Assembly: GCA_963737265.1 (NCBI GenBank)
Contig: CAVTRY010000016.1
Span: 224,001 to 288,000, forward strand
DNA length: 64,000 nt
From: an uncultured delta proteobacterium
Lineage (GTDB): Bacteria > Myxococcota_A > Polyangia > Fen-1088
Direction: 5' to 3'
Under the pieces are notes generated by a model, which did no database searches, was not told the origin of the DNA, and saw only the letters and a list, made by a program, of their open reading frames with translations. This document shows, in pieces, positions 4,744 through 51,513 of this stretch. Both the position numbers and the translations under genes were made by a program. Positions within the stretch are counted from its first letter, which is position 1. Every line of letters starts with the position of its first letter.

Positions 4744-6579
4744 ATGCACCCAGCTTGGGCCGAAGAACTTCGACAACGTTACCGGCGCGGCGAGGCCAGC
4801 CAGTTCATCCTGCACGGCAATGTCTTCGATGTCGTTGCCTGGGACGGCAAGCTCATTCCGCTCGGCACCTATCTGGCCGAGAACCTGCTCGGCGAAACCA
4901 AGGACATCGTGGCGGTCTTCAATCTCGCCAGCGGCGGCACCTTGGTTCGCCGCAAGGCCGACCTGGGCGGATTCGAGGATCTGGTGGTGCAGCGCCAGCC
5001 GAGCAAGTTTCTGCCCGCCATGGAGCGCATCCTCAAGACGCGCACCAAGGTCGCCTTGGTGGTCGAGTACGCCGAGACGCTGGCCCCGGCCGCCGACGCC
5101 GCCATGATGAGCGAGGAAGATCGCACCGCGGTCGTGACCCTGCACCGCTGGTCGCTTTCGCCCGAGATCGCCGACTCGGACAACGTGGTGTTGCTGCTGG
5201 CGGAAAACCTGTCCGAGCTTCATCCCAAGCTGGTGTCCAATCCACGCATCGCCACCGTGCGCATCCCCATGCCCGACGAGGCCACCCGCCGCACCGTCGT
5301 GGATCTAGTCATGCCGGGCGCCGACGCCGCGTATGCCGCACGACTGGCCAACGTCACCGCGGGACTGCGCGCGGTGCAGATCCAGACCATCTTGCAACCC
5401 CCGCCAGCGGGCGCCGAGGACGGCGAAGAAGATCGCTTCAAGTTCATCCACGGCCTGCTGGGAGCCACGGACGCCGCCGTGCCCAGGGCGCGCAAGCTGG
5501 CCGCCATCACCAAGGGCATGGGCCGCGACGAGATCCGCGTGGTGGTGGCGCCCGACGCCGCCCAGGGAACGCCCGACGACGTCGCCAAGCGCGAACGCGA
5601 CGAAATCGACAGAATCATCACCCGGCGCAAACGCGAGATCATCGAGCGCGAATGCTACGGACTTATCGAATTCGTCGAATCGAGCCACGACTTTCGCGTG
5701 GTGGGCGGTATCGAGGGCGTGAAAACCGAGCTCGTGCGCATCGCCAAGGCCATTCGCGAAGGCCACACCGAGCGCGTGCCCATGGGCATTTTGTTCACCG
5801 GCCCCATGGGCGCGGGCAAGACCTTCGTGGCCGAGGCCTTCGCCAAGGAATCCGGGCTGACCACCATCAAGCTCAAGAGCTTCAGGTCGAAATGGGTCGG
5901 CGCCACCGAGGCGAATCTCGAACGCATCTTGCAAGTGATCCAGGCCATCGGCCAGGTGGTAGTCATCATCGACGAAGGCGACCGCTCGTTCGGCAACCAG
6001 AGCGACGGCGAGGGCGATGGTGGAACCTCGTCTCGGGTCATCGCGCGCCTCAAGGAGTTCATGTCGGACACCAGCAACCGTGGCCGCATCCTCTTCATCT
6101 TGATGACTAACCGGCCCGACAAGCTAGACGTGGACATCAAACGCGCCGGCCGCCTCGACCGCAAGGTGCCGCTGCTGTACGCCCAGACCGCCGAGGAAGT
6201 CGAAGCCGTGCTGCTGGCCCAGGTCCGCAAGCACAAGCTGACCTGGGATGTGACCTTTCCCGCGGATCGTATCGAGATTTCGCAACCCATGCTTGGACTT
6301 TCCAACGCCGACTTCGAGGCCATCACGCTGCTGGCCGCGGAATACGCCGCTGGACCCGAGATGGATCTCGTCGTCCGCATCGGCAAAGTCCACATGGTGC
6401 AAGCCATGGCGGACTACCTGCCCTCGCGCGACGGCAAGATGCTCGAATACATGGAGCTCTTGGCCGTGTTCGAGGCGTCCAATCGCCAGATGCTTCCCAA
6501 GAAATACCAAAACATGACTGCCCAGGAATTGCAGGCGCGCCTTGATGTCTTGCGCCTGGAATGCGGACAGCGGCGATGA
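4744..6579 (+). CDS. AAA+ ATPase (classical clade) with a degenerate N-terminal AAA-like domain
   Basis: Walker A GPMGAGKT, pore loop SKWVG, Walker B IIDEGD, second region of homology TNRPDKLD...RAGRLD. Confidence 0.9.
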
Positions 6580-40169: not shown

Positions 40170-40991
40170 GTGAAGATCCTTGTACCCGTGAAGCGAGTTC
40201 CCAACCCCGAGCTGAAGCTCAAGATCGCCGGTGGCGCGGTCGATTTGGCCGGCACCACTTGGCAAGTCAACCCGTTCGACGAATACGCGGTCGAGACCGC
40301 GCTGCGCTTGACGGAGAAGAGCAAGGGCGGCGAGCGCTCGGGCGAAGTGGTGGTGGTGAGCATCGGCCCCAAGGAAACAACCACCCAACTTCGACAACTG
40401 CTGGCCATGGGCGCGGATCGCGGCATTCTCGTCGCCGGCGACGACGGCGCGCTGGATGCGGATCTGGTGGCGCGGACGCTGAAGGCCGTGGTTGAAACGG
40501 AAAAACCGGACCTCGTGGTCATGGGCAAGCAGGCCGTCGACGGCGACGACAATCAAGTCGGACAGCTTCTGGCCGGCTATCTCGGTTGGCCCCAGGCTAC
40601 CTTCCTTTCGACGCTCACCCTGGCCGCCGACGGCAAGTCCGCCACCGTCCTGCGCGAAGTGGACACCGGCGTGGAAGAGCGGCGGGTTCGCCTGCCGGCC
40701 ATCGCCACCGTCGACCTGCGCATCATCGCCAAGAAGGCCGTGCGCAACGAGGCCCTGTCGGGTCCAGAAGCCGAATGGGAAGACACGCAGCGCCTGGCCT
40801 CGCTAAAGGGCATCATGGCGGCAAAGAAGAAGGAGCTGAAAGAGATCGCCGCCGAATCGCTCGGCGGCGGCGGCGGCATCCTGGTCAAGACCCTGCGCCA
40901 CGAAAATCCACCGTCGCGCAAGGCCGGCGTAAAGGTGGCCTCGGTTGAAGAGTTGGTTTCCAAGCTGCACACGGAAGCAAAGGTGATTTGA
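40170..40991 (+). CDS. etfB: Electron transfer flavoprotein beta subunit
   Basis: [32 protein letters not shown]. Confidence 0.95.
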
Positions 40992-41956
40992 TGTCCGCGA
41001 CTGTCGTTTTTCTCGAAACCTCTTCCACCAACCTGCGTTCGGCGTCGCTGCCCGCGCTGACCGCGGCGCGCGCCCTGGCCAAGCACCACGGCGGCCCAGT
41101 CGTCGGTGTCGTCATCGGCGCTGGCGTCGGCGCCGCGGCTGTCGACGCCGCCCGCTACGTCGACAAGGTGCTGTGCTTCGACAACCCGGCGCTGGCCGCC
41201 GCCCTGGCCGAAACCTGGGCGCCCCTGCTCGCGGGCGCGGTCAAGGGCTCCGGTGCCACCGCGCTCGTCGCCTCGGCGACCTCCACCGGCAAGGACATTC
41301 TGCCCCGCGCCGCCGCCCTACTTGGCGCAGGCATGGCAAGCGACGTGGTGGCGGTACTCGGCGCCAAGTCGTTCCGCCGGCCGACCTATGCCGGCAACGC
41401 GCAGACCGAGGTCGAAGTCACGACGGCCACGGTGGTCTGCACCGCACGCCAGACCGAATTCGCTCCCGCGGCGCCTGCCGCCAGCCCCGGCACGGTCGAA
41501 AGCAAAGATCCCGGCGCCATCGACGCCCTAGGTTCCGAATTCGTGGCCCTGCACGCCACCACCAGCGCACGCCCGGATCTCGCCGAGGCCAAGGTGGTCG
41601 TGTCCGGCGGTCGCGGCATGAAAGAGGCGGCGAACTTCAAGGTGCTGGAAGAGCTGACCGATGCTCTCGGTGGTGCGCTCGGCGCCAGCCGTGCCGCCTG
41701 TGACGCCGGCATGGTGCCCAACGACCTGCAAGTCGGACAGACCGGCAAGGTGGTAGCGCCCGAGCTCTACTTCGCCGTCGCCCTTTCCGGCGCCATCCAG
41801 CACTTGGCCGGCATGAAAAGCTCCAAGGTCATCGTGGCCATCAACAAGGATCCCGAAGCGCCCATCTTCCAGGTCGCCGACTACGGCCTGGTTGCCACCT
41901 GGGAATCGACGCTGCCCCAGCTCATCGCCGAGATCAAGAAGGTGAAGGCGGCGTAA
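40991..41956 (+). CDS. etfA: Electron transfer flavoprotein alpha subunit
   Basis: [35 protein letters not shown]. Confidence 0.95.
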
Positions 41957-41963
41957 CAACGGC

Positions 41964-42070
41964 GGACGACACATTCATGGAAGCGGGACGGACAGCTGCT
42001 TCATCCAGGCGAGGTTCGGGCACGCGAGCCTGGGGACGACGAGCATCTACACTTTTGTGTCGATCAAGAG
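41964..42070 (+). pseudogene. Tyrosine recombinase C-terminal (box II) remnant
   Basis: Frameshifted MEAG/TD.CFIQARFGHASLGTTSIYTFVS resembles L.EAGTD...IQ..LGH.S..TT.IYTHVS. Confidence 0.55.
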
Positions 42071-42132
42071 CGGGTTGGATGCGGGGAGGTGCAGGAGGTA
42101 TATTGGACAGCGGAATCATTCGAGGGATCGTC

Positions 42133-42342
42133 ATGGCCGAACCAGCCCATCAGCGTCAGCAGCTCTTCGAGAAGATTGCTCGCCTATCTCCTGACCGTGT
42201 GGCGGAGGTCGAGGACTTTGTGGATTTCCTCGCCCCGCGGACTACCGATCGCGAGCTCGCCCATGCATCCGTGGCGGCTTCCGTGCCGGCCTTTGCGAAA
42301 GTCTGGGACAATCCCGAGGATGACGTCTACGACCAGCCGTAG
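42133..42342 (+). CDS. Probable antitoxin (DUF2281-like)
   Basis: KIARLSPDRVAEVEDFVDFL...AFAKVWDNPEDDVYD; directly upstream of a PemK/MazF gene. Confidence 0.75.
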   Translation: MAEPAHQRQQLFEKIARLSPDRVAEVEDFVDFLAPRTTDRELAHASVAASVPAFAKVWDNPEDDVYDQP

Positions 42343-42351
42343 CGGTCCAGC

Positions 42352-42557
42352 ATGCCCTACCACTTCGGCGACGTCATCTTTGTCCCGTTTCCATTCACCG
42401 ACCAATCGACTACGAAAAGGCGTCCGGCGGTTGTCGTCAGCTCGGATGCCTATCACCGCGACCGGCCGGACATCATCCTGATGGCCGTCACCAGTCAAAT
42501 GCGCCCCGCGCCCACGCCGGCTTGCTCAAGCCTTCGGTCATCAAGCCCTTACTCACA
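42352..42557 (+). pseudogene. PemK/MazF toxin, internally deleted and truncated by the repeat array
   Basis: GDVIFVPFPFTD...KRRPAVVVS; resumes as AGLLKPSVIKPLLT in another frame and is then cut by the array. Confidence 0.8.
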
Positions 42558-43329
42558 CAGATCCCTGACCGACCACAGATCCCTGACCCACAGATCCCTG
42601 ACCGACGGTAGTTGAAACCATCGCAGATCCCCGCGACCGACGGTAGTTGCCAGATCCCTGACCGACGGTAGTTGATCCTCAGATCCCTGACCGACGGTCA
42701 CGCAGATCCCCCCCCAGATCCCCCCAGATCCCCAGATCCCCGACCGACGGTAGTTGCGGCGGATCCCTGCCCCCAGATCCCCCAGATCCCCGACCGACGG
42801 TAGTTGCGGCGGATCCCTGCCCCCAGATCCCCGACCGACGGTAGTTGCACAGATCCCCGACCGACGGTTGTCCAGATCCCCGACCGACGGCAGATCCCCG
42901 ACCGACGGTCAGATCCCCGACCGACGGTATCGCAGATCCCCGACCGACGGTAGTTGCGGCAGATCCCCAGATCCCCGACCGACGGTAGTTGCGGCAGATC
43001 CCCAGATCCCCGACCGACGGTAGTTCCCACAGATCCCCGACCGACGGTCAGATCCCACAGATCCCCGACCGACGGTCAGATCCCACAGATCCCCGACCGA
43101 CGGTCAGATCCCCGACCGACGGTAGTTGCCCAGATCCCCGACCGATGGTGCAGAGACCCCCGACCGACGGTCCAGAGACCCCCGACCGACGGTAGTTCAG
43201 ATCCCCGACCGGGGAGATCCCGGGGAGATCCCCGACCGACGGTAGTTGCCCAGATCCCCGACCGACGGTAGTTGCCCAGATCCCCAGATCCCCGACCGAC
43301 GGTCCCAGATCCCCGACCGACGGTAGTTG
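42558..43329 (+). repeat. Polarised array of about 40 variably 3'-truncated units of CAGATCCCCGACCGACGGTAGTTG
   Basis: Units counted by eye; shared start AGATCCC; core palindrome ACCG-A-CGGT. Confidence 0.95.
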
Positions 43330-44525
43330 AAGATGGACGTGCTGCAATTCCAGAGCTCCAGTTTGAAGTCGACCCAATAGGTCCTATGGCAGGTGCACTG
43401 GACACTCCAGCAGGCCGCGGATTGGCCATTCCGGTGTGGGAACGAAGGTGCGCAACGGCGGCGAACGCCTGGCGAGATGCCTTCGAGACAGAAAGCTGCC
43501 TTTATGAGGCAGAAGTGCCTTTCTCATCGAGGCTCGGTGGCCCTGCCTCACGGCGACGCTGGGGCTCCGCCGGGCGAAGCATGGGCATCCTGCACGCCAT
43601 CCGTTCCCTCGCTCAGCACGCGTGCGAACCTGCGCATCCAGTAGGTCCCGAACGGGAACACGACATCGGCGACGCCAGCGGTCCATGCCCTGATGGCCAA
43701 GCGGTACCGCTCGAGAAACGCCTTGCTGCGGCCGATCGCCTCGATCCTTGGCCACTTGCTTCTGGCGGCGACGCGCGGGCTGATAGCGAAGTGCGGCTCG
43801 GCGCTTTTCGGGCAGTCAAAAGGGTTTTGGGCGAGAATGGCCTCGCGACCGAGGACAGTCTTGCCAGTCGCGCGGCGGCGTTCGCGGTGTTCGGTTTCGG
43901 CGGTGCGGACGCGGTCGGCCACGAGAGCGTTCCATTCGTCCTGAGTCTGACAGCAGAAGCCGCTGGGCCTGCGTAGAGGCAGAATGGCGACCGCGGGCTA
44001 CTGTCCTTCGGAGCGAAAGAAATACTTCGGTCTGGTGGCGATGAGTCGTTGTGTGGTCAGCGCGGCCTGGAAGCTACTGACGCCGGGCCATTCCTCGATG
44101 GTGTCAACCAAGTCGGCGGCGGACGGGTTGGCGTAGGCGTAGACCATCTTGTCGAGAACGTCGTTGGGTTCGACGAGGCGGACGACGGAGGTTGGGTCGG
44201 ACGACCAGAAGGCCTCGAAGCGACCGAGATGGGTGTTCTGGCAGCGGGCAAGGAGGGCGTGAAAGTGTTCGGCAAAGATGGGGAAGTTGCCCTCGGCGTC
44301 GTGCAGCCCAGCGTGGTAGTGGTTGGACATGGCCACAACGAAGAAGATTTCGACCTTGGCTCTCTGCGCGGCGAGGGCGAGGCAATAGACAAAGGCGTTG
44401 TTGGTGTCCTCGTTGCTGAGCGACAATTACATCTCCCCAAAGACGACAGCTACGTCGCCCCGCTTTGAGGCGCGACGGTGACCGTGAGGTAGACCTCCAA
44501 GCCCGCAAGCGGGCAGGAGGCACCT

Positions 44526-46024
44526 TTGAAGCCGGTCACCGACGCCCAAGTGAGGCGTTTGATGGAAGAGATGAGCAAGATTGGAAAAGTAGGCCAGGCC
44601 GCCATGAAGGCGGGCATGGACCGGAAGACAGGGCGGCGATACATCGCCGCGGGCAAGCTACCGTCGGAGCTACGGCAGCCGCGGTGGTGGCGGACGCGCC
44701 CTGACGCGTTCGCCGAGGACTGGCCAGCCGTGGCCAAGTTGCTGGAGGAAACGCCTGGGCTGGAGGCTCAGACGGTGCTGGAGCTGCTGGAGGCGAAGCA
44801 GCCAGGGCGGTACAACGAGAGCCATCTTCGGACAATGCAGCGGCGAATCCGTCGCTGGCGGGCCGAGCATGGTCCTGCGCGTGAGATTTGGTTCACGCAG
44901 GCGCATCGGCCCGGTGAAGCCGCGCAAACCGACTTCACGTCGACGGCGGAGCTTGGTGTGACGATCGTGGGCCAGCTATTCGTGCACCTTTTGTGCGTGA
45001 CGGTGCTGCCGTACTCGAACTGGCAATGGGCGACCGCGTGTCTGTCGGAGTCTCTGGCAGCGCTTCGGCGAGGGATCCAGTCGGCGCTGTTCCAGCTTGG
45101 GCGGGTGCCGCGATACCACCAAACCGACCACTCGACGGCGGCGACACATCAGATCGCTCGCGATGCGGAAGATCGCACTTTCAACGATGAATACAAGGCG
45201 GTCATGCGGCACCTCGGAATGGAGCCACGAACTACAGCCGTCGGGGCCAAGGAACAAAACGGCGATGTGGAGGCCAGCAACGGCGCGCTCAAGCGTCGGC
45301 TTGAACAAGCGTTGCTGGTGCGTGGCAGCCGCGACTTCGCGGACCAAGACGACTACGAACGCTTCGTAGCCAAGGTGGTCCGCAAAGCCAACGCTTCGCG
45401 AGGCCCGCGCGTCGCCGAGGAGATCGAAGCCATGCGGCCGCTGGTGGTGGAGCGTTTGCCGGAGTACGCAGAAATGACGGCACCTGTGGCGTCGACGAGC
45501 ACCATCCGGGTCAAGTCGTGCGCCTACTCGGTGCCGTCGAGGCTGATCGGCGCACGGGTGAGAGTCCGCGTGTTCGAGCACCGAATCGAGGTGTACTACG
45601 CCGACAACTTGGAATTGGCCTGCGACAGGCTGCGAGGCAAGACCGCGCGCATCGACTACCGGCACGTCATCTGGTCTTTGGTGCGCAAGCCGGCGCGTTT
45701 TCTCGCTACGTCTACCGAGAAGAGCTGTTTCCAAGCGTGACTTTCAGGCGGGCATACGACGCGATCCAGGCGACCAAGCCTGGAATCAAAGGCGACGTTG
45801 AATACCTGCGCATTCTTCACCTGGCCGCCAGCACGATGGAAGCCGATGTCGAGCAAGCGCTCACGACTCTGCTTGCCGATGGGACCATCTTGACGGCGGA
45901 TGCAACCAAGAAGAGATGCACACAGGCGACGGACAGTACCTATCCACCGAGCGTCCCCGCGCTCGAAGCACCGCTGGTCGATCTCGCGTCCTACGACCTG
46001 CTCCTCGAACAGGTGGCATCATGA
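44526..46024 (+). CDS. istA: IS21 transposase (frameshift near 45692)
   Basis: QTDFT, TDH, NGDVE DDE motifs; YSVPSRLIG; KP(G)AFSRYVYREELFP continues in another frame. Confidence 0.85.
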
Positions 46025-46869
46025 CCAACGTCTCCGTAGACACGGTCAAGCCGAGCGCGCTCGACGCTCTGCTGGTGCTTCTGCGCGCGCTCAAGCTGCC
46101 TGCCTTCACCCGGCACGCCGAGGAGATCGCGATCAAGGCCAGCCGCGAGGGGTGGACCTTCAGCCAATACCTCCAGCACCTGGCCGAACTGGAAATCGAA
46201 GAGCGCCGAACCCGTCGCATCGATCGCGCGCTTCGCGATTCGGACCTTCCCACGGAGAAAACCCTGGCCACCCTGGAACGTGGTCGGCTGTCACCCAAGG
46301 TGATGAAGCAGATGGCGAGCCTGTGTGAGGGTGGCTTTGTCGAACGTGGGGAGAACCTGCTCGTCTTCGGACTGCCCGGCCGAGGCAAAAGTCACGTTGT
46401 GGCTGCCATCGGCCACGAACTCATCCGGCGCGGCTACCGGGTCCTCTTCACGCCGACCTTCGCGCTTGTCCAGAGGCTGCTGGCCGCCAAGCGCGACCTT
46501 CGCCTGGAACGAGAACTGGCCGCGCTCGACATCTATCACGCCGTGATCCTCGACGACATCGGCTACGTCCAGCAGAGCCGCGATGAAATGGAGGTCCTTT
46601 TCACCTTCCTGGCCGAGCGGTACGAACGCAAGAGCGTCCTCATCACCAGCAACCTGGTCTTCAGCGATTGGATCCGCATTTTCAAGGATCCCATGACCAC
46701 CGCCGCCGCCATCGACCGACTGGTCCACCACGCGGTCATCCTTGAGATGACCGGCCCCAGCTACCGCAGCGAAGAAGCACGAAAGAGAGGCGTCACCACC
46801 CCAGCGACAACTACGACAACTACCGATCAACCAACGACAACTACCCCCGACAACAATGGGGCGATGTAA
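46021..46869 (+). CDS. istB: IS21 helper ATPase
   Basis: GLPGRGKSH, ILDDIGY, LITSN, AAIDRLVHH. Confidence 0.95.
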   Translation: MTNVSVDTVKPSALDALLVLLRALKLPAFTRHAEEIAIKASREGWTFSQYLQHLAELEIEERRTRRIDRALRDSDLPTEKTLATLERGRLSPKVMKQMASLCEGGFVERGENLLVFGLPGRGKSHVVAAIGHELIRRGYRVLFTPTFALVQRLLAAKRDLRLERELAALDIYHAVILDDIGYVQQSRDEMEVLFTFLAERYERKSVLITSNLVFSDWIRIFKDPMTTAAAIDRLVHHAVILEMTGPSYRSEEARKRGVTTPATTTTTTDQPTTTTPDNNGAM

Positions 46870-47019
46870 TTGACGTCACCGGGTGAATGTAGTTGACGTC
46901 CAGCACCTCGTCGGGACGCAGGAAGAAGCGCCGCTCGGAACAACGGCGCGTAATCATGTAGTCGGCACCCGGAAGCACCTGGCGTGGAAGGCTCATGCCG
47001 GGGTATCGGTCAGGGTGCC

Positions 47020-47258
47020 AGAGAAGTTGCTTCGAGAACTACCCTCGGTTCGGATCACCGATCACCCGCGGGCTTCGAGAATTACCCTCGGTTCGGATCA
47101 CCCGGAGAAGTTGCTTCGAGAATTACCCTCGGTTCGGATCACCAGCGGAATTACCCTCGGTTCGCACCCGAGAAGTTGCTTCGAGAATTACCCTCGGTTC
47201 GGATCACCAGACGAGACGGTTCGGATCACCAGAATTGTTCGGATCACCAGAATTACCC
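47020..47258 (-). repeat. Polarised array of GGTGATCCGAACCGAGGGTAATTCTCGAAGCAACTTCTC units (minus strand), variably truncated
   Basis: Related to, and inverted relative to, the left array (GATCC..ACCGA.GGTA.TT). Confidence 0.9.
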
Positions 47259-47274
47259 GAAACCATCGATCAGG

Positions 47275-47415
47275 AACCGCCCGCAGTGAGCGTCCCGAGG
47301 CGCGCAGGAGACTTGACATGTCGTAGCTGTCGATGGCGTCGTAGGTGCCGATCATCAAGAGCACGATGTGGGGCGTGTACTCCGGCACGACGCTGCCTGT
47401 GGACGATAATGGCGG
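47275..47415 (-). pseudogene. SGNH/GDSL hydrolase internal fragment
   Basis: PHIVLLMIGT(Y)D....YDMS..(frameshift)PARLGTL resembles the block III GTND region. Confidence 0.55.
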
Positions 47416-47448
47416 CCAAGCACCAGGTCGGCGCGGGCCTTGTCAATG

Positions 47449-47931
47449 TCACTTTGGCGAGCGGCTGCCCGAGGTCGAGATGCGCTCGAGGCTCTTGAGG
47501 TCGGCGAGATCCTGGTCTCGGCCGGATGCACGTTTGTTCTTAAGCAATGCCAACCGACCGATGATGGGAATGGTGCGACCGTCGATCTCGATGCTGGCAC
47601 CATCCGCCATCGCCTCGTCGAAGGTGATGCCGTCGACGCGGTTGATGATGTCGATGCGCAGCGGTGGAACCCCGATCTGCAGCACGCCGTCGTAGCTGGC
47701 GAAGTCGCCTTCGCTTACTTCGAAAGCGGACAGCGACGCGCCGAAGGCCCCCAAAGCACGATAGACCAGCGCCGCATTGCCGCTGGTCGCCCGTACCAAG
47801 ACATCCAGATCCTTCGTGGCCCTGGGATGTCCGTGGAAAGCGACGGCGTGCCCGCCGACCACCACGAACTCGGCGCCTGCGTCGCAGAGGGCGAGCAGGA
47901 GATCGCGAAAGTCGTCGGGAAGGTCGATCAT
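47449..47931 (-). CDS. Nucleotidyltransferase-fold protein
   Basis: VVVGGHAVAFHGHPRATKDLD, RIDII, KNKRASGRDQDLADL. Confidence 0.8.
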   Translation of the reverse strand: MIDLPDDFRDLLLALCDAGAEFVVVGGHAVAFHGHPRATKDLDVLVRATSGNAALVYRALGAFGASLSAFEVSEGDFASYDGVLQIGVPPLRIDIINRVDGITFDEAMADGASIEIDGRTIPIIGRLALLKNKRASGRDQDLADLKSLERISTSGSRSPK

Positions 47932-48152
47932 GTCGCTCGCCTGCGGACGAACCTGCAAGGGATCTGCGCGCGTGCGTAGACGGGCAGCGCATGCCCCGCA
48001 AGGCTGTAGCTTATCCGCGTGAGCCGGTGGACCAATGAAACAGCCTCTGCGCCGAACACCGGGGTGAAGTCAACCTCAGGGTCGCCGAGGTGAGCCTTGC
48101 GCAGGGTCATTCGCGCCCGTCTCGCTTGCGACCGTCTTTCGGCGTCCGTCAT
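47928..48152 (-). CDS. Small partner protein of the nucleotidyltransferase
   Basis: ATGA overlap with the nucleotidyltransferase gene; 74 aa. Confidence 0.6.
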   Translation of the reverse strand: MTDAERRSQARRARMTLRKAHLGDPEVDFTPVFGAEAVSLVHRLTRISYSLAGHALPVYARAQIPCRFVRRRAT

Positions 48153-48339
48153 GTGCCAATCCCCACGCCGCCAGAATAGCGTCTTTGCGAGCGGACGCCA
48201 AACATCCGCAGCCGGCCACCCGTAGCCGGCGGCACCGTTTCCACCGAGGTCAGCGTGGGCGAGCGAGGGAGCGGCTGCGCGCCGGTCGCCTTGACGCCGG
48301 CCACGCCTTTGTCTTGGGCGCGGCCCGTAGCGCTCGCCG

Positions 48340-48427
48340 CTAGCTGGCCAGCTTCGCGATCAAGTCGCCGACCTCGCGCGTGCCCGTACCCATCTTGCCG
48401 GCGGAGAGACTCTTGATCTTGATGCCC
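48340..48427 (-). pseudogene. 3' fragment of an isopropylmalate/isocitrate dehydrogenase family gene
   Basis: IKIKSLSAGKMGTGTREVGDLIAKLAS* resembles the LeuB-family C-terminus; begins exactly at the repeat. Confidence 0.6.
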
Positions 48428-48574
48428 GTTCCTATCCCCCGTTCCTATCCGAGGGTACTTTTGAGGACGGATGAGATCCCTCAAATAGCAGGAACCATGT
48501 CCGGCTTCCGGGCGCGAGGGCTGGCGCTCAACTACCCTCGGTGAGGAATCGGAGATACCCTCGGTTCGGATCAC
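48428..48574. repeat. REPIN-like unit, copy 1
   Basis: Inverted ends TCCTATCCGAGGGTA...TACCCTCGGTGAGGA around a conserved ~75-bp spacer; repeated at 49857 and 50167. Confidence 0.85.
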
Positions 48575-49850
48575 CTACGAAGTGGTCGAGAAGGTGGCCC
48601 GCCGATGTGGCTTTCTCAAGCGTCGCCGCGATGTCGCGCCCGCGGCGCTTCTGGTAGCGTGCATTTCGGCCCTGGGCGCGGGCGCCGCCATGTGGCTTGC
48701 CGATATCCTGCGCGCGTTCAACGCCTTTACCGGGAAAGCCGTTCGCTACAAGCCGTTCCACAACCAGATCAGCAAGCCGAAGTTTCCCGACTTCGTACGC
48801 GCGATTCTGGAGGAGTTGCTGGCAAAGCTCACCGCGCCCGTGCTCGAGGGGTTACCGAAGAGCAAGCTGGCCCAGTTCGAGGAAATTGTGGCCCACGACG
48901 GAACCTCGTTTGCCCTCAAGAACACCCTCGCGAAGAAGTGGCCGGGGCGCTTCAAGAAGCTGACACCGGCTGCAGTAGAACTCCACGTCACGATGAGTGT
49001 CCTCAGCGACAACCCGGTCGCGATTACCTTGGCTCCGGACAGGGAGGCTGAGCGCCCGTTCCCTCCCAAGGCGGCTTCCCTCAAGAACCGCCTGCTGCTT
49101 GAGGACCGTGGATACCAGGAGCGAGAGTTCTTCGTCGCCGTACAAGACGCCGACGGTTCCTTCATAGTCCGTGGCACAAAGTGCATCCGGCCGACAATCC
49201 GGACCGCTCGCGATAGCCAGGGCTGTCGTCTCCGTCACCTTGAAGGAAGACGCCTCTCGTGGTCCCTGCTCCCCCGTCATGACGTCGACCTCGAAATCGA
49301 TTGGAAGCGCGACTCGGGCAGGACCTACAGCGGTCGTCTTGTCGTCATCTATGCCGAAGGAAAGCGGAACCAGGCGTCCTTCGTCTACCTGCACACGAAC
49401 TTGCCCCGTGAGACTTTCTCCGCGCACGACGTGGGGCAGATCTACAGGCTAAGGTTCTACAGGCTAAGGGGCAAGTCGAGCTGCTGTTCAAAGAATGGAA
49501 ATCCCGCTCAAACCTCCACAAATTCGACACCGGCAAGGCCCCCATCGCCGAGGGCTTGATCTGGGCCAGCCTCCTCGCAGCTACGCTCAGGCGCTGCATC
49601 ACCCACGCGGCCGAGCGTGCGTGCGGCATCCCGCTGTCCACACAGCGCGCAGCCCGTTTCGCCAAGCACTTCCTCGACGCAATCCTGGCTGCCGTCCTTG
49701 AATGCAGCACGAGCCTCTTCGACGACATACGCGCCGCCTTCGCTTTCCTCGTTGGCAACGCGCTTCGGGCACATCCGAAGCGCGACCGAAAAACCGGACG
49801 CCTCGCCGCGGGACTTCGCCATGTGGCCGTCGCCTAAGTACCTACGTATG
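48575..49850 (+). pseudogene. IS4 family transposase, 5'-truncated and frameshifted, with its right end
   Basis: HDGT, EDRGY, YRLR(W)QVELLFKEWKS broken by a tandem TCTACAGGCTAAGG duplication; end CCTAAGTACCTACGTATG. Confidence 0.8.
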
Positions 49851-49856
49851 AAGACA

Positions 49857-50341
49857 TCCTATCCCCCGTTCCTATCCGAGGGTACTTTTGAGGACGGATG
49901 AGATCCCTCAAATAGCAGGAACCATGTCCGACTTCCGGGCGCGAGGGCTGGCGCTCAACTACCCTCGGTGAGGAATCGAGGAATCGGAGAATTACCCTCG
50001 GTTCGGATCACTCCGACCTCAGGGAATTACCCTCGGTTAGGCTTTCACCGGTTAGGTTAGGCTTTCACCGGTTAGACTTTCACCTCCGCGGTTAGGCTTT
50101 CACCTCCGGTTAGGTTTTCCACCGTACACAGGGAATTACCCTCGGTTAGGCTTTCAAGGCTTTCAAGGGTACTTTTGATGACGGATGAGATCCCTCAAAT
50201 AGCAGGAACCATGTCCGACTTCCGGGCGCGAGGGCTGGCGCTCAACTACCCTCGGTGAGGAATCGAGGAATCGGAGAATTACCCTCGGTTCGGATCACTC
50301 GGAGCGGATCACTCGGAGAATTACCCTCGGTTCGGATCACT
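49857..50341. repeat. REPIN-like copies 2 and 3 plus truncated arrays (AATTACCCTCGGTTCGGATCAC and AATTACCCTCGGTTAGGCTTTCACC)
   Basis: Directly visible repeats that share the TACCCTCGGT core. Confidence 0.9.
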
Positions 50342-50547
50342 CCCCGAAGGGGGCAGCGCGGCCGTTGACCTCCGTTCCCGGAAGATTCGTTCCGGCGCAA
50401 ACCCGCTGAGGCCGAGCGAAGCAAGCGATGGGCAGGGTGGGAGGCGGGGCCGAAGCCGGGCGTCCACTCTCCCGAATGCCCGCACGGCATCAACCTTTCC
50501 GTCACAACGGCGATTGTCGTTGTATGATTGTGCCAATGAGCCGGCTT

Positions 50548-51513
50548 ATGGCGGCCGAACAAGTCAAGAGCGTGGCCGAAACCATAGACCGGCTGGAGCG
50601 CAACGTTGCGCGCGTTATCCGGGGCAAGCCGGAGGCGATCCGCAACTGCGTGCTGGCACTGCTGGCGCGCGGGCACCTGCTGGTCGAGGATGTCCCCGGC
50701 GTTGGCAAGACCACGCTGGCGCGCGCCCTGGCCGCATCCATCGGCGGCACCTTTCACCGCATCCAATTCACCAGCGACCTTTTGCCGTCGGACATCATCG
50801 GCGTGTCCGTCCTGGTCAACGGCACCGGAAGCTTTGACTTCAAGCCCGGGCCGCTGTTCGCCAACGTCGTGCTCGCCGACGAAATCAACCGCACCACGCC
50901 GCGCACGCAAAGCGCGTTGCTGGAGGCGATGAACGACAACCAGATCACCGTCGACGGCACGAGCTACCCGCTCGAACAGCCCTTCTTGGTCGTCGCCACG
51001 CAAAACCCCGAGGAACACTACGGCACCTATCCCCTGCCCGAGTCGCAGATGGATCGCTTCGCCCTGCGCATCCGGCTCGACTATCCCTCGGCCGCGGATG
51101 AAAAGGCGCTCCTCCTCGAAGCGCCGGTTCTCGCCGAGGAAGCGCTGGCGAAAGTGCAAGCCGCGTTGTCGCTGGGCGAAATCGTGGCCCTGCAAGAGGC
51201 CGCCGCGCGCGTACACCTGTCGCCCGAGCTGGCTGGCTACATCGTCGACGTGGCGCACGAAACCAGGCGTTCGCCCTTTCTGTCGCTCGGCATCTCGCCG
51301 CGCGGGGAGCTCGCCTGGCGCAATCTCGCGCGCGCTGCCGCGCTGGCCGCGGGTCGCGAATTCGTGCTGCCCGACGACCTCAAAAACCTGGCGCTGCCGG
51401 CCCTCGCCCATCGCCTGGTCCTCGTCACCCAACTCGATTCCACCGGGCGCGCACGCGAGGAGGCCGAGCGAATCGTCACCGACATTCTCAGCCGCGTGCC
51501 GGTGCCGGGCTAG
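50548..51513 (+). CDS. MoxR family AAA+ ATPase
   Basis: HLLVEDVPGVGKT, RIQFTSDLLPSDI, LADEINR, ATQNP. Confidence 0.95.
   Translation: MAAEQVKSVAETIDRLERNVARVIRGKPEAIRNCVLALLARGHLLVEDVPGVGKTTLARALAASIGGTFHRIQFTSDLLPSDIIGVSVLVNGTGSFDFKPGPLFANVVLADEINRTTPRTQSALLEAMNDNQITVDGTSYPLEQPFLVVATQNPEEHYGTYPLPESQMDRFALRIRLDYPSAADEKALLLEAPVLAEEALAKVQAALSLGEIVALQEAAARVHLSPELAGYIVDVAHETRRSPFLSLGISPRGELAWRNLARAAALAAGREFVLPDDLKNLALPALAHRLVLVTQLDSTGRAREEAERIVTDILSRVPVPG

Follow-up and report, generated by a model that had tools for sequence, protein, structure and literature searches.

Polar arrays of nested terminal segments around a dead RAYT-like gene at the etfA-moxR site of a Myxococcota genome

We analyzed a window of 64,000 nts from an uncultured delta proteobacterium (contig CAVTRY010000016.1, positions 224,001 to 288,000; Myxococcota_A), in which the segment 47259-50341 carries pieces of unrelated genes between repeats. 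The original prediction for this segment was that an HUH enzyme joins repeat ends to arbitrary DNA, such that the locus accretes cassettes in an integron-like way, with repeat-mediated deletions as the alternative. The segment is the right half of an insertion that is built around a dead REPtron-like element, that is, a RAYT-like gene (RAYT, REP-associated tyrosine transposase; REP, repetitive extragenic palindrome) flanked by its own repeats. The genome of the window is named G000 and its contig C16, while G001 and so on are congeners. Coordinates are those of the window unless another contig is given.

The Pfam order over 28 open reading frames (ORFs) of the window runs from etfB/etfA (to 41956) through a DUF2281-like gene, a PemK/MazF piece and istA/istB of an IS21 insertion sequence (IS), and it continues with a DUF2204 nucleotidyltransferase, a DDE_Tnp_1 transposase and, from ~50428, MoxR. 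The left border, given for context, is etfA (40988..41956, plus strand; Pfam ETF and ETF_alpha), and homology with the congeners breaks off at ~41953-41965, at the end of that gene. Counted over the 10 congeners with both genes on a single contig, the distance from the etfA end to the conserved moxR start is 12-507 bp in nine, and 4590 bp in one. Because etfA and moxR are adjacent in 9/10 congeners, the ~8.5 kb from 41957 to ~50490 is an insertion specific to the source lineage. The site being empty in the congeners, no fragment found here is ancestral to it, and the reading of the fragments as ancestral genes of the locus, against which the original prediction had asked to be checked, is ruled out.

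The core repeats of the original prediction are real. The core TACCCTCGGT has 14 copies in the window, all on the plus strand between 47040 and 50331, where 0.04 are expected (0/100 shuffles reach 14). A unit of ~138 nts is reported by a repeat finder at 48452-48589, 49879-50016 and 50166-50303. The program also shows repeats packed closely at 47018-47260, and at 42553-43350 a second array, far larger, whose unit is roughly the reverse complement of that at 47018-47260 (inverted pairs I6-I15). What is repeated is the pair of inverted arms of a REPtron-like element, which flank a RAYT-like HUH-Y1 gene. An arm consists of an outer terminus of ~9-10 nts, then the core CCGAGGGTA. Array 1 (42557..43330, minus strand) is an amplified R arm in nested segments from the outer terminus, reading CAGATCCCCGACCGACGGTAGTTG on the plus strand; Array 2 (47018..47284, minus strand) is an amplified L arm with a diverged outermost unit, reading GGTGATCCGAACCGAGGGTAATTCTC... 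on the minus strand. Farther right, on the plus strand, are three mini-elements of ~140 nts, gene-less versions with an L arm, a ~90-nt spacer and an R arm. Mini-element 1 (48433..48581; 92.8% identity to copy 2) has one or more L arms before the ~90-nt spacer and two R arms after it, mini-element 2 is at 49856..50016 (repeat finder and BLAST against the genome), and mini-element 3 (50161..50341; 98.6% identity to copy 2) has an L arm truncated inside the core, plus R-arm units. An R-arm array of a second sequence type, TACCCTCGGTTAGGCTTTCA, occupies 50013..50160 (plus strand; repeat finder). The mini-elements are 93-99% alike within one locus and only ~73% alike between loci. Their predicted fold has an outer stem of 5 bp, an internal loop of 2 nts and a core stem of 9 bp; by folding, the outer stem differs and co-varies between loci, as TTCCT/AGGAA in the window and TCCCC/GGGGA at C13. 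The genome has 45 exact cores, 36 of them in the window, at C13 and at C23:212k (40 in three loci in another tally); with one core mismatch allowed, there are about nine array loci.

Two observations on related repeats stand apart from this. The 138-nt unit was considered as an end of an IS4 element and ruled out, as the intact IS4 relative comes with inverted ends of its own, plus a target duplication of 6 bp. A separate tandem repeat at C23:537725-538220 of G000 has ~127-nt units with the related core CCGAGGGTA or AACCCTCGG, depending on the unit, and no adjoining HUH gene.

The gene between Arrays 1 and 2 (46996-43554, minus strand) is dead by an IS21 insertion and a stop codon. Its first ~29 codons (MSLPRQVLPG...) are at 46908..46996 (minus strand; tblastn), and residues ~29-315 are at 43554..44413 (minus strand), a pseudogene with an in-frame TAG at 43998-44000. 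The original prediction was right in linking the locus to HUH, in that the repeats belong to a RAYT-like element, but no HUH gene lies in 47259-50341, the gene being at 43554-46996. The window copy is 59.6% identical (tblastn) to an intact copy, a 316-aa ORF at C14 (L003:3716-4666) with copies of the L-type arm directly upstream. The NCBIfam model REP_Tyr_transpos (NF047646) matches residues 5-138 with an E-value of 8.1e-8, and with 32.3 bits against a cut-off of 80 the match is below cut-off. No Pfam family matches the protein at E-values up to 1, a genome scan with PF01797 (Y1_Tnp) detects none of the RAYT-like copies, and PDB sequence searches with the single protein and with a profile found nothing relevant. 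Residues N59, H60, H62, Y120 and N124 are invariant across 12 sequences of 37-100% identity, with the motifs NHxH and Y-x-x-x-N-P present. The HUH motif of the window copy reads SNHYH, and the reference Tyr motif reads YAFTNP; passages of PMC6006769, whose class 2 served for the comparison, describe the forms of the Tyr motif by subclass. For an AlphaFold2 (AF2) model (mean predicted local distance difference test score, pLDDT, 76.2), the best Foldseek match is E. coli TnpAREP with a REP hairpin (4er8_A, E 8.2e-7, target template modeling score, TM, 0.70), followed by the TnpA proteins of IS608 and ISDra2. The fold is Y1, with a single conserved Tyr. The Joint Genome Institute (JGI) labels relatives RayT, and there are at least 2151 homologues in the protein collection.

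The genome has at least four full-length copies of the gene plus stubs; the paralogues are 60-94% identical and each has its own arm variant. Read in the direction of the gene, the window copy is preceded by the L arms of Array 2 and followed by the R arms of Array 1. L arrays are also upstream at C11, C14 and C18, and R arrays downstream at C11 and C18, while the C14 gene is followed by one L-type copy only. The arrangement extends to the 11 closest loci in other Myxococcota, with L cores upstream in 11/11, R cores upstream in 0/11 and R cores downstream in 9/11. More distant homologues have arrays with other cores.

The IS21-family element in the HUH gene (44414..46907, plus strand; istA and istB; Pfam rve, Mu-transpos_C_2 and IstB_IS21) is 2494 bp long, and a BLAST of 43351-47017 gives more than 20 genome matches at 99.6-99.9% identity, some of them partial. 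The window istA is frameshifted, with an IstA of 404 aa versus 499 aa in the C13 copy; other copies have one extra G after 45691. Three or four IS21 copies are inside HUH arm arrays or within ~1.2 kb of one (the window, C11:682052-684547, C18:156757-159250 and C13:242091-244594), which suggests a target preference of IS21 for these arrays. At 44408/46911, one short contig in each of the soil runs X1 and X2 joins the HUH gene across the IS21. These contigs skip 2502 nts, have 4-5 other letters between the two sides, and hint at an uninterrupted HUH allele or a close paralogue, the shorter side (33-41 nts) being too short for an allele call. Downstream of the intact HUH copy at C14, L003 ~4900-5700 looks like the start of a candidate group II intron reverse transcriptase.

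The arrays are polar. They are strings of segments, each extending from a fixed outer terminus to a variable inward stop, with the arm oriented as terminus, core and inner sequence. Greedy parsing of 10 arrays gives 265 pieces, of which 164 begin at unit position 0-2 and 211 at position 5 or lower, and only 73 reach the inner end; in Array 1, 48/53 pieces begin at unit position 5 or lower. The copy number of 7-mers drops from the terminus to the inner end, from 38-41 to 13-15 in Array 1, from 42 to 13 at C23, and from 9 to 2 at C13. The series extends into the gene itself at C11 and C12, where 5' stubs of HUH genes keep the first 29-182 codons and each runs into a new terminus. The polarity is also visible by eye in three relatives. 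Every such array that we have met, in this genome or in other Myxococcota, accompanies this HUH family; the core is a different one in the more distant homologues.

Where the arrays meet other DNA, four cargo or flank joints follow one rule, other DNA/terminus, with a single polarity. The mazF joint (mazF'/ACAGATCCC, plus strand) is cut at 42556/42557, the start of the first Array 1 unit, exactly as the original prediction had it. At the LeuB joint (LeuB'/...CGTTCCTAT, plus strand) the tail of the original prediction is confirmed, with the last 27-28 codons and the stop of the gene; an 11-nt filler separates it from the first L-arm unit at 48433. At the IS4 joint (IS4'/GGTGATCCGAAC, minus strand), the copy begins 0-5 nts from the R-arm end ...GGATCACC. 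The fourth joint is that of the right flank (right flank/AGTGATCCG, minus strand). The SGNH piece, said to lie between repeats, does so but is separated from the array by ~20-45 nts of unassigned DNA rather than cut at it, and the SGNH'/nucleotidyltransferase and partner/LeuB' joints have no repeat. The proposal that repeat ends are joined to arbitrary DNA survives for the termini, which do meet unrelated DNA with a fixed polarity. The motif CGAGG is found 0-6 nts past the break in the intact donor at 3/5 joints with a known partner; its chance per joint is 0.023 (strict) or 0.11 (loose) in a post hoc test, and we keep it as a hint.

The cargo begins on the left with a DUF2281-like antitoxin gene of a mobile toxin-antitoxin module (42134..42342, plus strand; Pfam DUF2281 E 1.6e-4, below cut-off) and a mazF remnant (42352..42556, plus strand; Pfam PemK_toxin E 1.4e-8, profile positions 3-59 of 109). 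Compared with an intact G008 copy (L022), this mazF has an internal deletion of ~34 nts near 42516 and is truncated at 42556. The DUF2281-mazF module occurs at other loci in congeners G008, G010, G012 and G005, once at 0.8 kb from an intact REPtron (G008). On the other side of the HUH gene, the SGNH/GDSL-type hydrolase piece (47301..47387, minus strand) is internal, has ~25-29 codons, and is 84% identical in DNA to a 442-aa gene of G001 and G004; a search of G000 for the full gene found none, and synteny around the SGNH gene is not preserved.

Next to it is a nucleotidyltransferase with a 74-aa partner (47449..48152, minus strand; Pfam DUF2204 E 1e-5), an intact two-gene module of toxin-antitoxin type. 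The nucleotidyltransferase is at 47449-47958 and the partner at 47928-48152, both on the minus strand, and the pair is indeed intact, as originally stated, and colinear with an 85%-identical G009 pair (169 aa + 76 aa). The LeuB/isopropylmalate dehydrogenase (IPMDH)-like tail (48340..48421, minus strand) comprises the last 27-28 codons and stop; in the congeners, the 3' end of a 355-aa gene matches it at 88-92% DNA identity. G000 has no full copy of this 355-aa gene; the syntenic position has another gene and no arm scar, and a second LeuB piece of 78 nts is alone at C11:363278 without an arm. In three congeners (L016 G002:C1, L015 G004:C400 and L017 G008:C25), the 3' end of the LeuB-like gene is a hotspot. 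After the gene in G002, G004 and G008 there is variable DNA and then partial copies of its own 3' end, of 17-188 codons, and the DNA at the hotspot includes MmeI-like restriction-modification genes, an S8 peptidase with an AAA ATPase, and helicase pieces.

The nucleotidyltransferase has at least 220 relatives in metagenome contigs, and we compared 80 of these loci with the window. In the closest relative (L162, 93% DNA identity to the pair), a LeuB-like gene ends 2.3 kb upstream in the same orientation, with no core; the gap is mostly a 2.1-kb stretch, 90.5% identical to a G000 C11 sequence, that is probably a mobile element. Since a full LeuB-like gene precedes the nearest relative of the pair, LeuB tail and pair are contiguous DNA that arrived as one piece of a LeuB-downstream island. 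In the 80 loci, no other segment of the window finds a match, and a single exact core occurs in only 1/80.

The last piece is an IS4-family DDE transposase remnant (about 48577..49851, plus strand; Pfam DDE_Tnp_1), which lacks the first ~205 nts of its 1459-bp intact relative and has a frame-shifting 14-nt duplication near 49456. The intact IS has five copies in G008, with a 438-aa transposase and its own inverted ends. The original prediction of an IS4 cut at a repeat is borne out at the 5' side, but the right end (~49851) is the natural IS end, not made by a repeat, and is 5 nts from an L-arm segment; because that end is natural, the copy entered by its own transposition. Two other IS4 copies in G000 are cut at different positions with no arms adjoining. 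The C23 IS4-like copy is interrupted by a 153-bp palindromic insert resembling a miniature inverted-repeat transposable element (MITE), at C23:532366-532518. Similar material to the cargo is found at other array loci, with RHH, PIN (twice), HTH, DUF4258 and ISL3 pieces at C12, and a restriction-enzyme fragment and IS21 at C13. Genome BLAST and the 80 metagenome loci gave no copy of any cargo together with arms elsewhere.

The explanation that we favor for the whole, and that we think has somewhat more chance of being right than wrong, is a dead REPtron-like element with arrays made by nicking and rejoining, and with eroded mobile debris between them rather than captured cassettes. HUH-Y1 enzymes cut single-stranded DNA (ssDNA) and hold the 5' end on a tyrosine, a chemistry known for IS608 and TnpAREP. 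Here, the enzyme would nick directly 5' of the terminus and stay linked to it via the tyrosine, and the terminus would then be re-ligated to a non-cognate 3'-OH. A 3'-OH on DNA newly synthesized from the nick would result in a tandem duplication of the terminal stretch, and a 3'-OH in the flanking DNA would result in a deletion that cuts the neighbor exactly at the terminus, so that one process would account for arrays and flush truncations alike. We infer a site-specific nick at the terminus because the segments all share one end, which neither slippage nor unequal exchange would hold constant. What lies between the arrays would be the eroded remains of mobile neighbors: toxin-antitoxin modules, a copy of IS4, and the part of a LeuB-downstream island that has the nucleotidyltransferase pair. 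We propose erosion because LeuB' and the pair are contiguous, the joints within the cargo are repeat-less, and the IS4 end is natural. The deletions that the original prediction offered as its alternative fit better than capture, and here they are anchored at the arm terminus.

Several points weigh against this explanation. Nicking and rejoining are deduced from sequence. The window HUH gene is dead, and therefore the events must be old, or else the work of paralogues, at only 60% identity, acting in trans. The erosion history requires a once-larger ancestral island at the site, and none was found. The LeuB joint has a CCCG microhomology and filler that ordinary illegitimate recombination could also produce. 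The array parse is greedy and noisy, with ~20% of the pieces beginning deeper within the unit, and the k-mer gradient of the relatives holds in 8/13 arrays, is flat in one and reversed in four. The long-range stem is no more stable than shuffles in 3/4 folds (z-scores of -1.2 to -1.8; overall -1.2 to -2.8), and stem stability is left out of the evidence base. Four public runs have only short contigs that do not span the arrays, and they gave no strain comparison.

The arrays could also be passive repeats, grown by slippage or unequal recombination, with fragments made by illegitimate recombination and IS-mediated deletion, and with the HUH protein uninvolved. The microhomology at the LeuB joint, the generic decay seen elsewhere without arms, and the abundance of other mobile debris in the island are all consistent with this, as are the mini-elements, whose high identity within the locus and low identity between loci point to local duplication and not to transposition. 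We nevertheless consider passive growth unlikely, in that slippage and unequal exchange give in-register units with both ends truncated alike, whereas here starts are fixed and ends vary, and such arrays are found only with the HUH family in question.

HUH-driven capture, in which termini are joined to arbitrary foreign DNA, or the template is switched from the nick, and the locus accretes cassettes, would explain why the block is absent from 9/10 congeners and why pieces of LeuB-like and SGNH genes occur in a genome that has neither in full, and hence no resident copy from which they could come. It is also in line with three joints at which unrelated DNA is flush or nearly flush with a terminus in a single polarity, and with the CGAGG of the donors. 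Helitrons and IS91/ISCR elements are reported to pick up flanking DNA, according to passages of PMC4778049 and PMC13181058. The content of the locus speaks otherwise: the LeuB tail and the nucleotidyltransferase pair are one ancestral piece, arms are absent from the joints within the cargo, the SGNH piece is not flush, the IS4 copy has a natural right end of its own transposition, truncated IS4 copies and a LeuB fragment exist without arms, segments are neither ORF-sized nor uniformly oriented, and even one core is present in only 1/80 nucleotidyltransferase loci. We regard capture as quite unlikely, and the integron-like accretion of cassettes is not upheld. It is similarly doubtful that the RAYT-like enzyme is a sequence-independent joiner of its terminus to any 3'-OH, which multiplies its own ends and fuses foreign or distant DNA. 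If it were, bacteria would have a parallel to the capture of gene fragments by Helitrons, and each event could be read from the nested arrays as from a fossil record. Most improbable of all are attC-like sites of a degenerate integron (of the type of CALIN, clusters of attC sites lacking an integrase) with the integrase elsewhere in the genome. The units do have ~100-140 nts, imperfect inverted ends, direct orientation, and short DNA between them. The original prediction had noted the lack of a tyrosine integrase, and indeed the 22 PF00589 matches of the genome include 0 on C16 and none beside the other array loci. In addition, the arms are ends of an HUH gene unit, and attC clusters are not known to contain arrays of half-sites.

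RAYT-like genes flanked by cognate repeats are a known kind of element, and we have not found polar nested end arrays described. REPtrons are tnpA_REP/RAYT genes flanked by REPs or bacterial interspersed mosaic elements (BIMEs), according to passages of PMC3333891, PMC6006769, PMC2817692 and PMC3116915. The element of the window is like them in having an HUH-Y1 protein with NHxH and Y-x3-N(P) and a fold nearest to TnpAREP 4er8, cognate inverted repeats on both sides of the gene, and a repeat variant per paralogue. It differs in a 316-aa protein with a conserved C-terminal part of ~180 aa, below the NCBIfam cut-off and without Pfam Y1_Tnp; in having several gene copies per genome, whereas RAYTs are usually single-copy; in repeats that are not dispersed at high copy, the exact cores being concentrated in few loci; in arms predicted to pair mutually across ~90 nts instead of each forming its own hairpin; and in the amplification of the arms to polar arrays built of nested terminal segments. 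The text of PMC6006769 does not use the words "tandem," "array" or "Myxoc"; its supplements could include this Myxococcota family. Among abstracts and passages, we found no paper that combines "REP-associated tyrosine transposase" with "Myxococc," nor a description of polar nested arrays.

IS200/IS605 elements (IS608, ISDra2) have a catalytic fold in common with the element (PDB hits 2-27), and they nick ssDNA via a 5'-phosphotyrosine intermediate, presumably as here. Their two ends have distinct subterminal hairpins, they lack inverted arms as well as end arrays, and they spread as identical or near-identical copies, whereas here paralogues are 60-94% identical and the arms are inverted repeats of each other. 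Adjacent deletions are classical behavior of transposable elements, and IS-mediated ones also cut neighbors exactly at the element end; here, in contrast, the end is duplicated many times and nested as well. Integrons and CALINs resemble the locus in that imperfect palindromes of ~100 nts follow one another in direct orientation, with short stretches of DNA between them. They differ from it in that no integrase is nearby here and the units are HUH element ends; an integron cassette is one promoterless ORF with one attC in uniform orientation, whereas the pieces here have multiple origins and include a two-gene module and an IS remnant. IS91/ISCR and Helitron elements, which have ori and ter ends, share the HUH enzyme acting at a fixed end, a variable extent of DNA copied or joined from it, and gene fragments beside the ends, but in the passages of PMC13181058 and PMC4778049 their proteins are of the Y2 or Rep-helicase type and carry captured DNA to new sites, and here nothing shows cargo moving with the arms.

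The cellular role of RAYT/TnpAREP and the spread of REP-type repeats are still open, according to passages of PMC8266576 and PMC6006769. The footprint of the Myxococcota family is uncommonly easy to read, being made of nested segments with one end fixed. If nicking and rejoining made it, it would tell where, and with what polarity, a RAYT-like enzyme cleaves in vivo, and it would show that such an enzyme reshapes neighboring DNA by duplications and flush deletions. For annotators, the lesson is that a gene fragment may end exactly at a repeat without having been captured.

The etfA-moxR spacer is a recurrent insertion site, with small and mutually unrelated inserts in the spacers of G002, G004, G005 and G008; the core is absent from all six congener loci examined there. 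In the window, the spacer upstream of the congener-conserved moxR region (50342..50492, no strand assigned) includes a small repeat at 50353-50418 that is also in congeners. An Rfam search of 41900-50600, which covers this repeat, has no match at E-values up to 0.1. The repeat (~65 nts, just 5' of moxR) has copies of 83-86% identity at several unrelated places in G001, G008 and G011. The G004 spacer (L021, C48) is ~390 bp with a long imperfect palindrome, the G008 spacer has a small extra gene, and the insert in G005, of 4.6 kb, includes one gene that is glycosyl-hydrolase-like and another that is rich in repeats.

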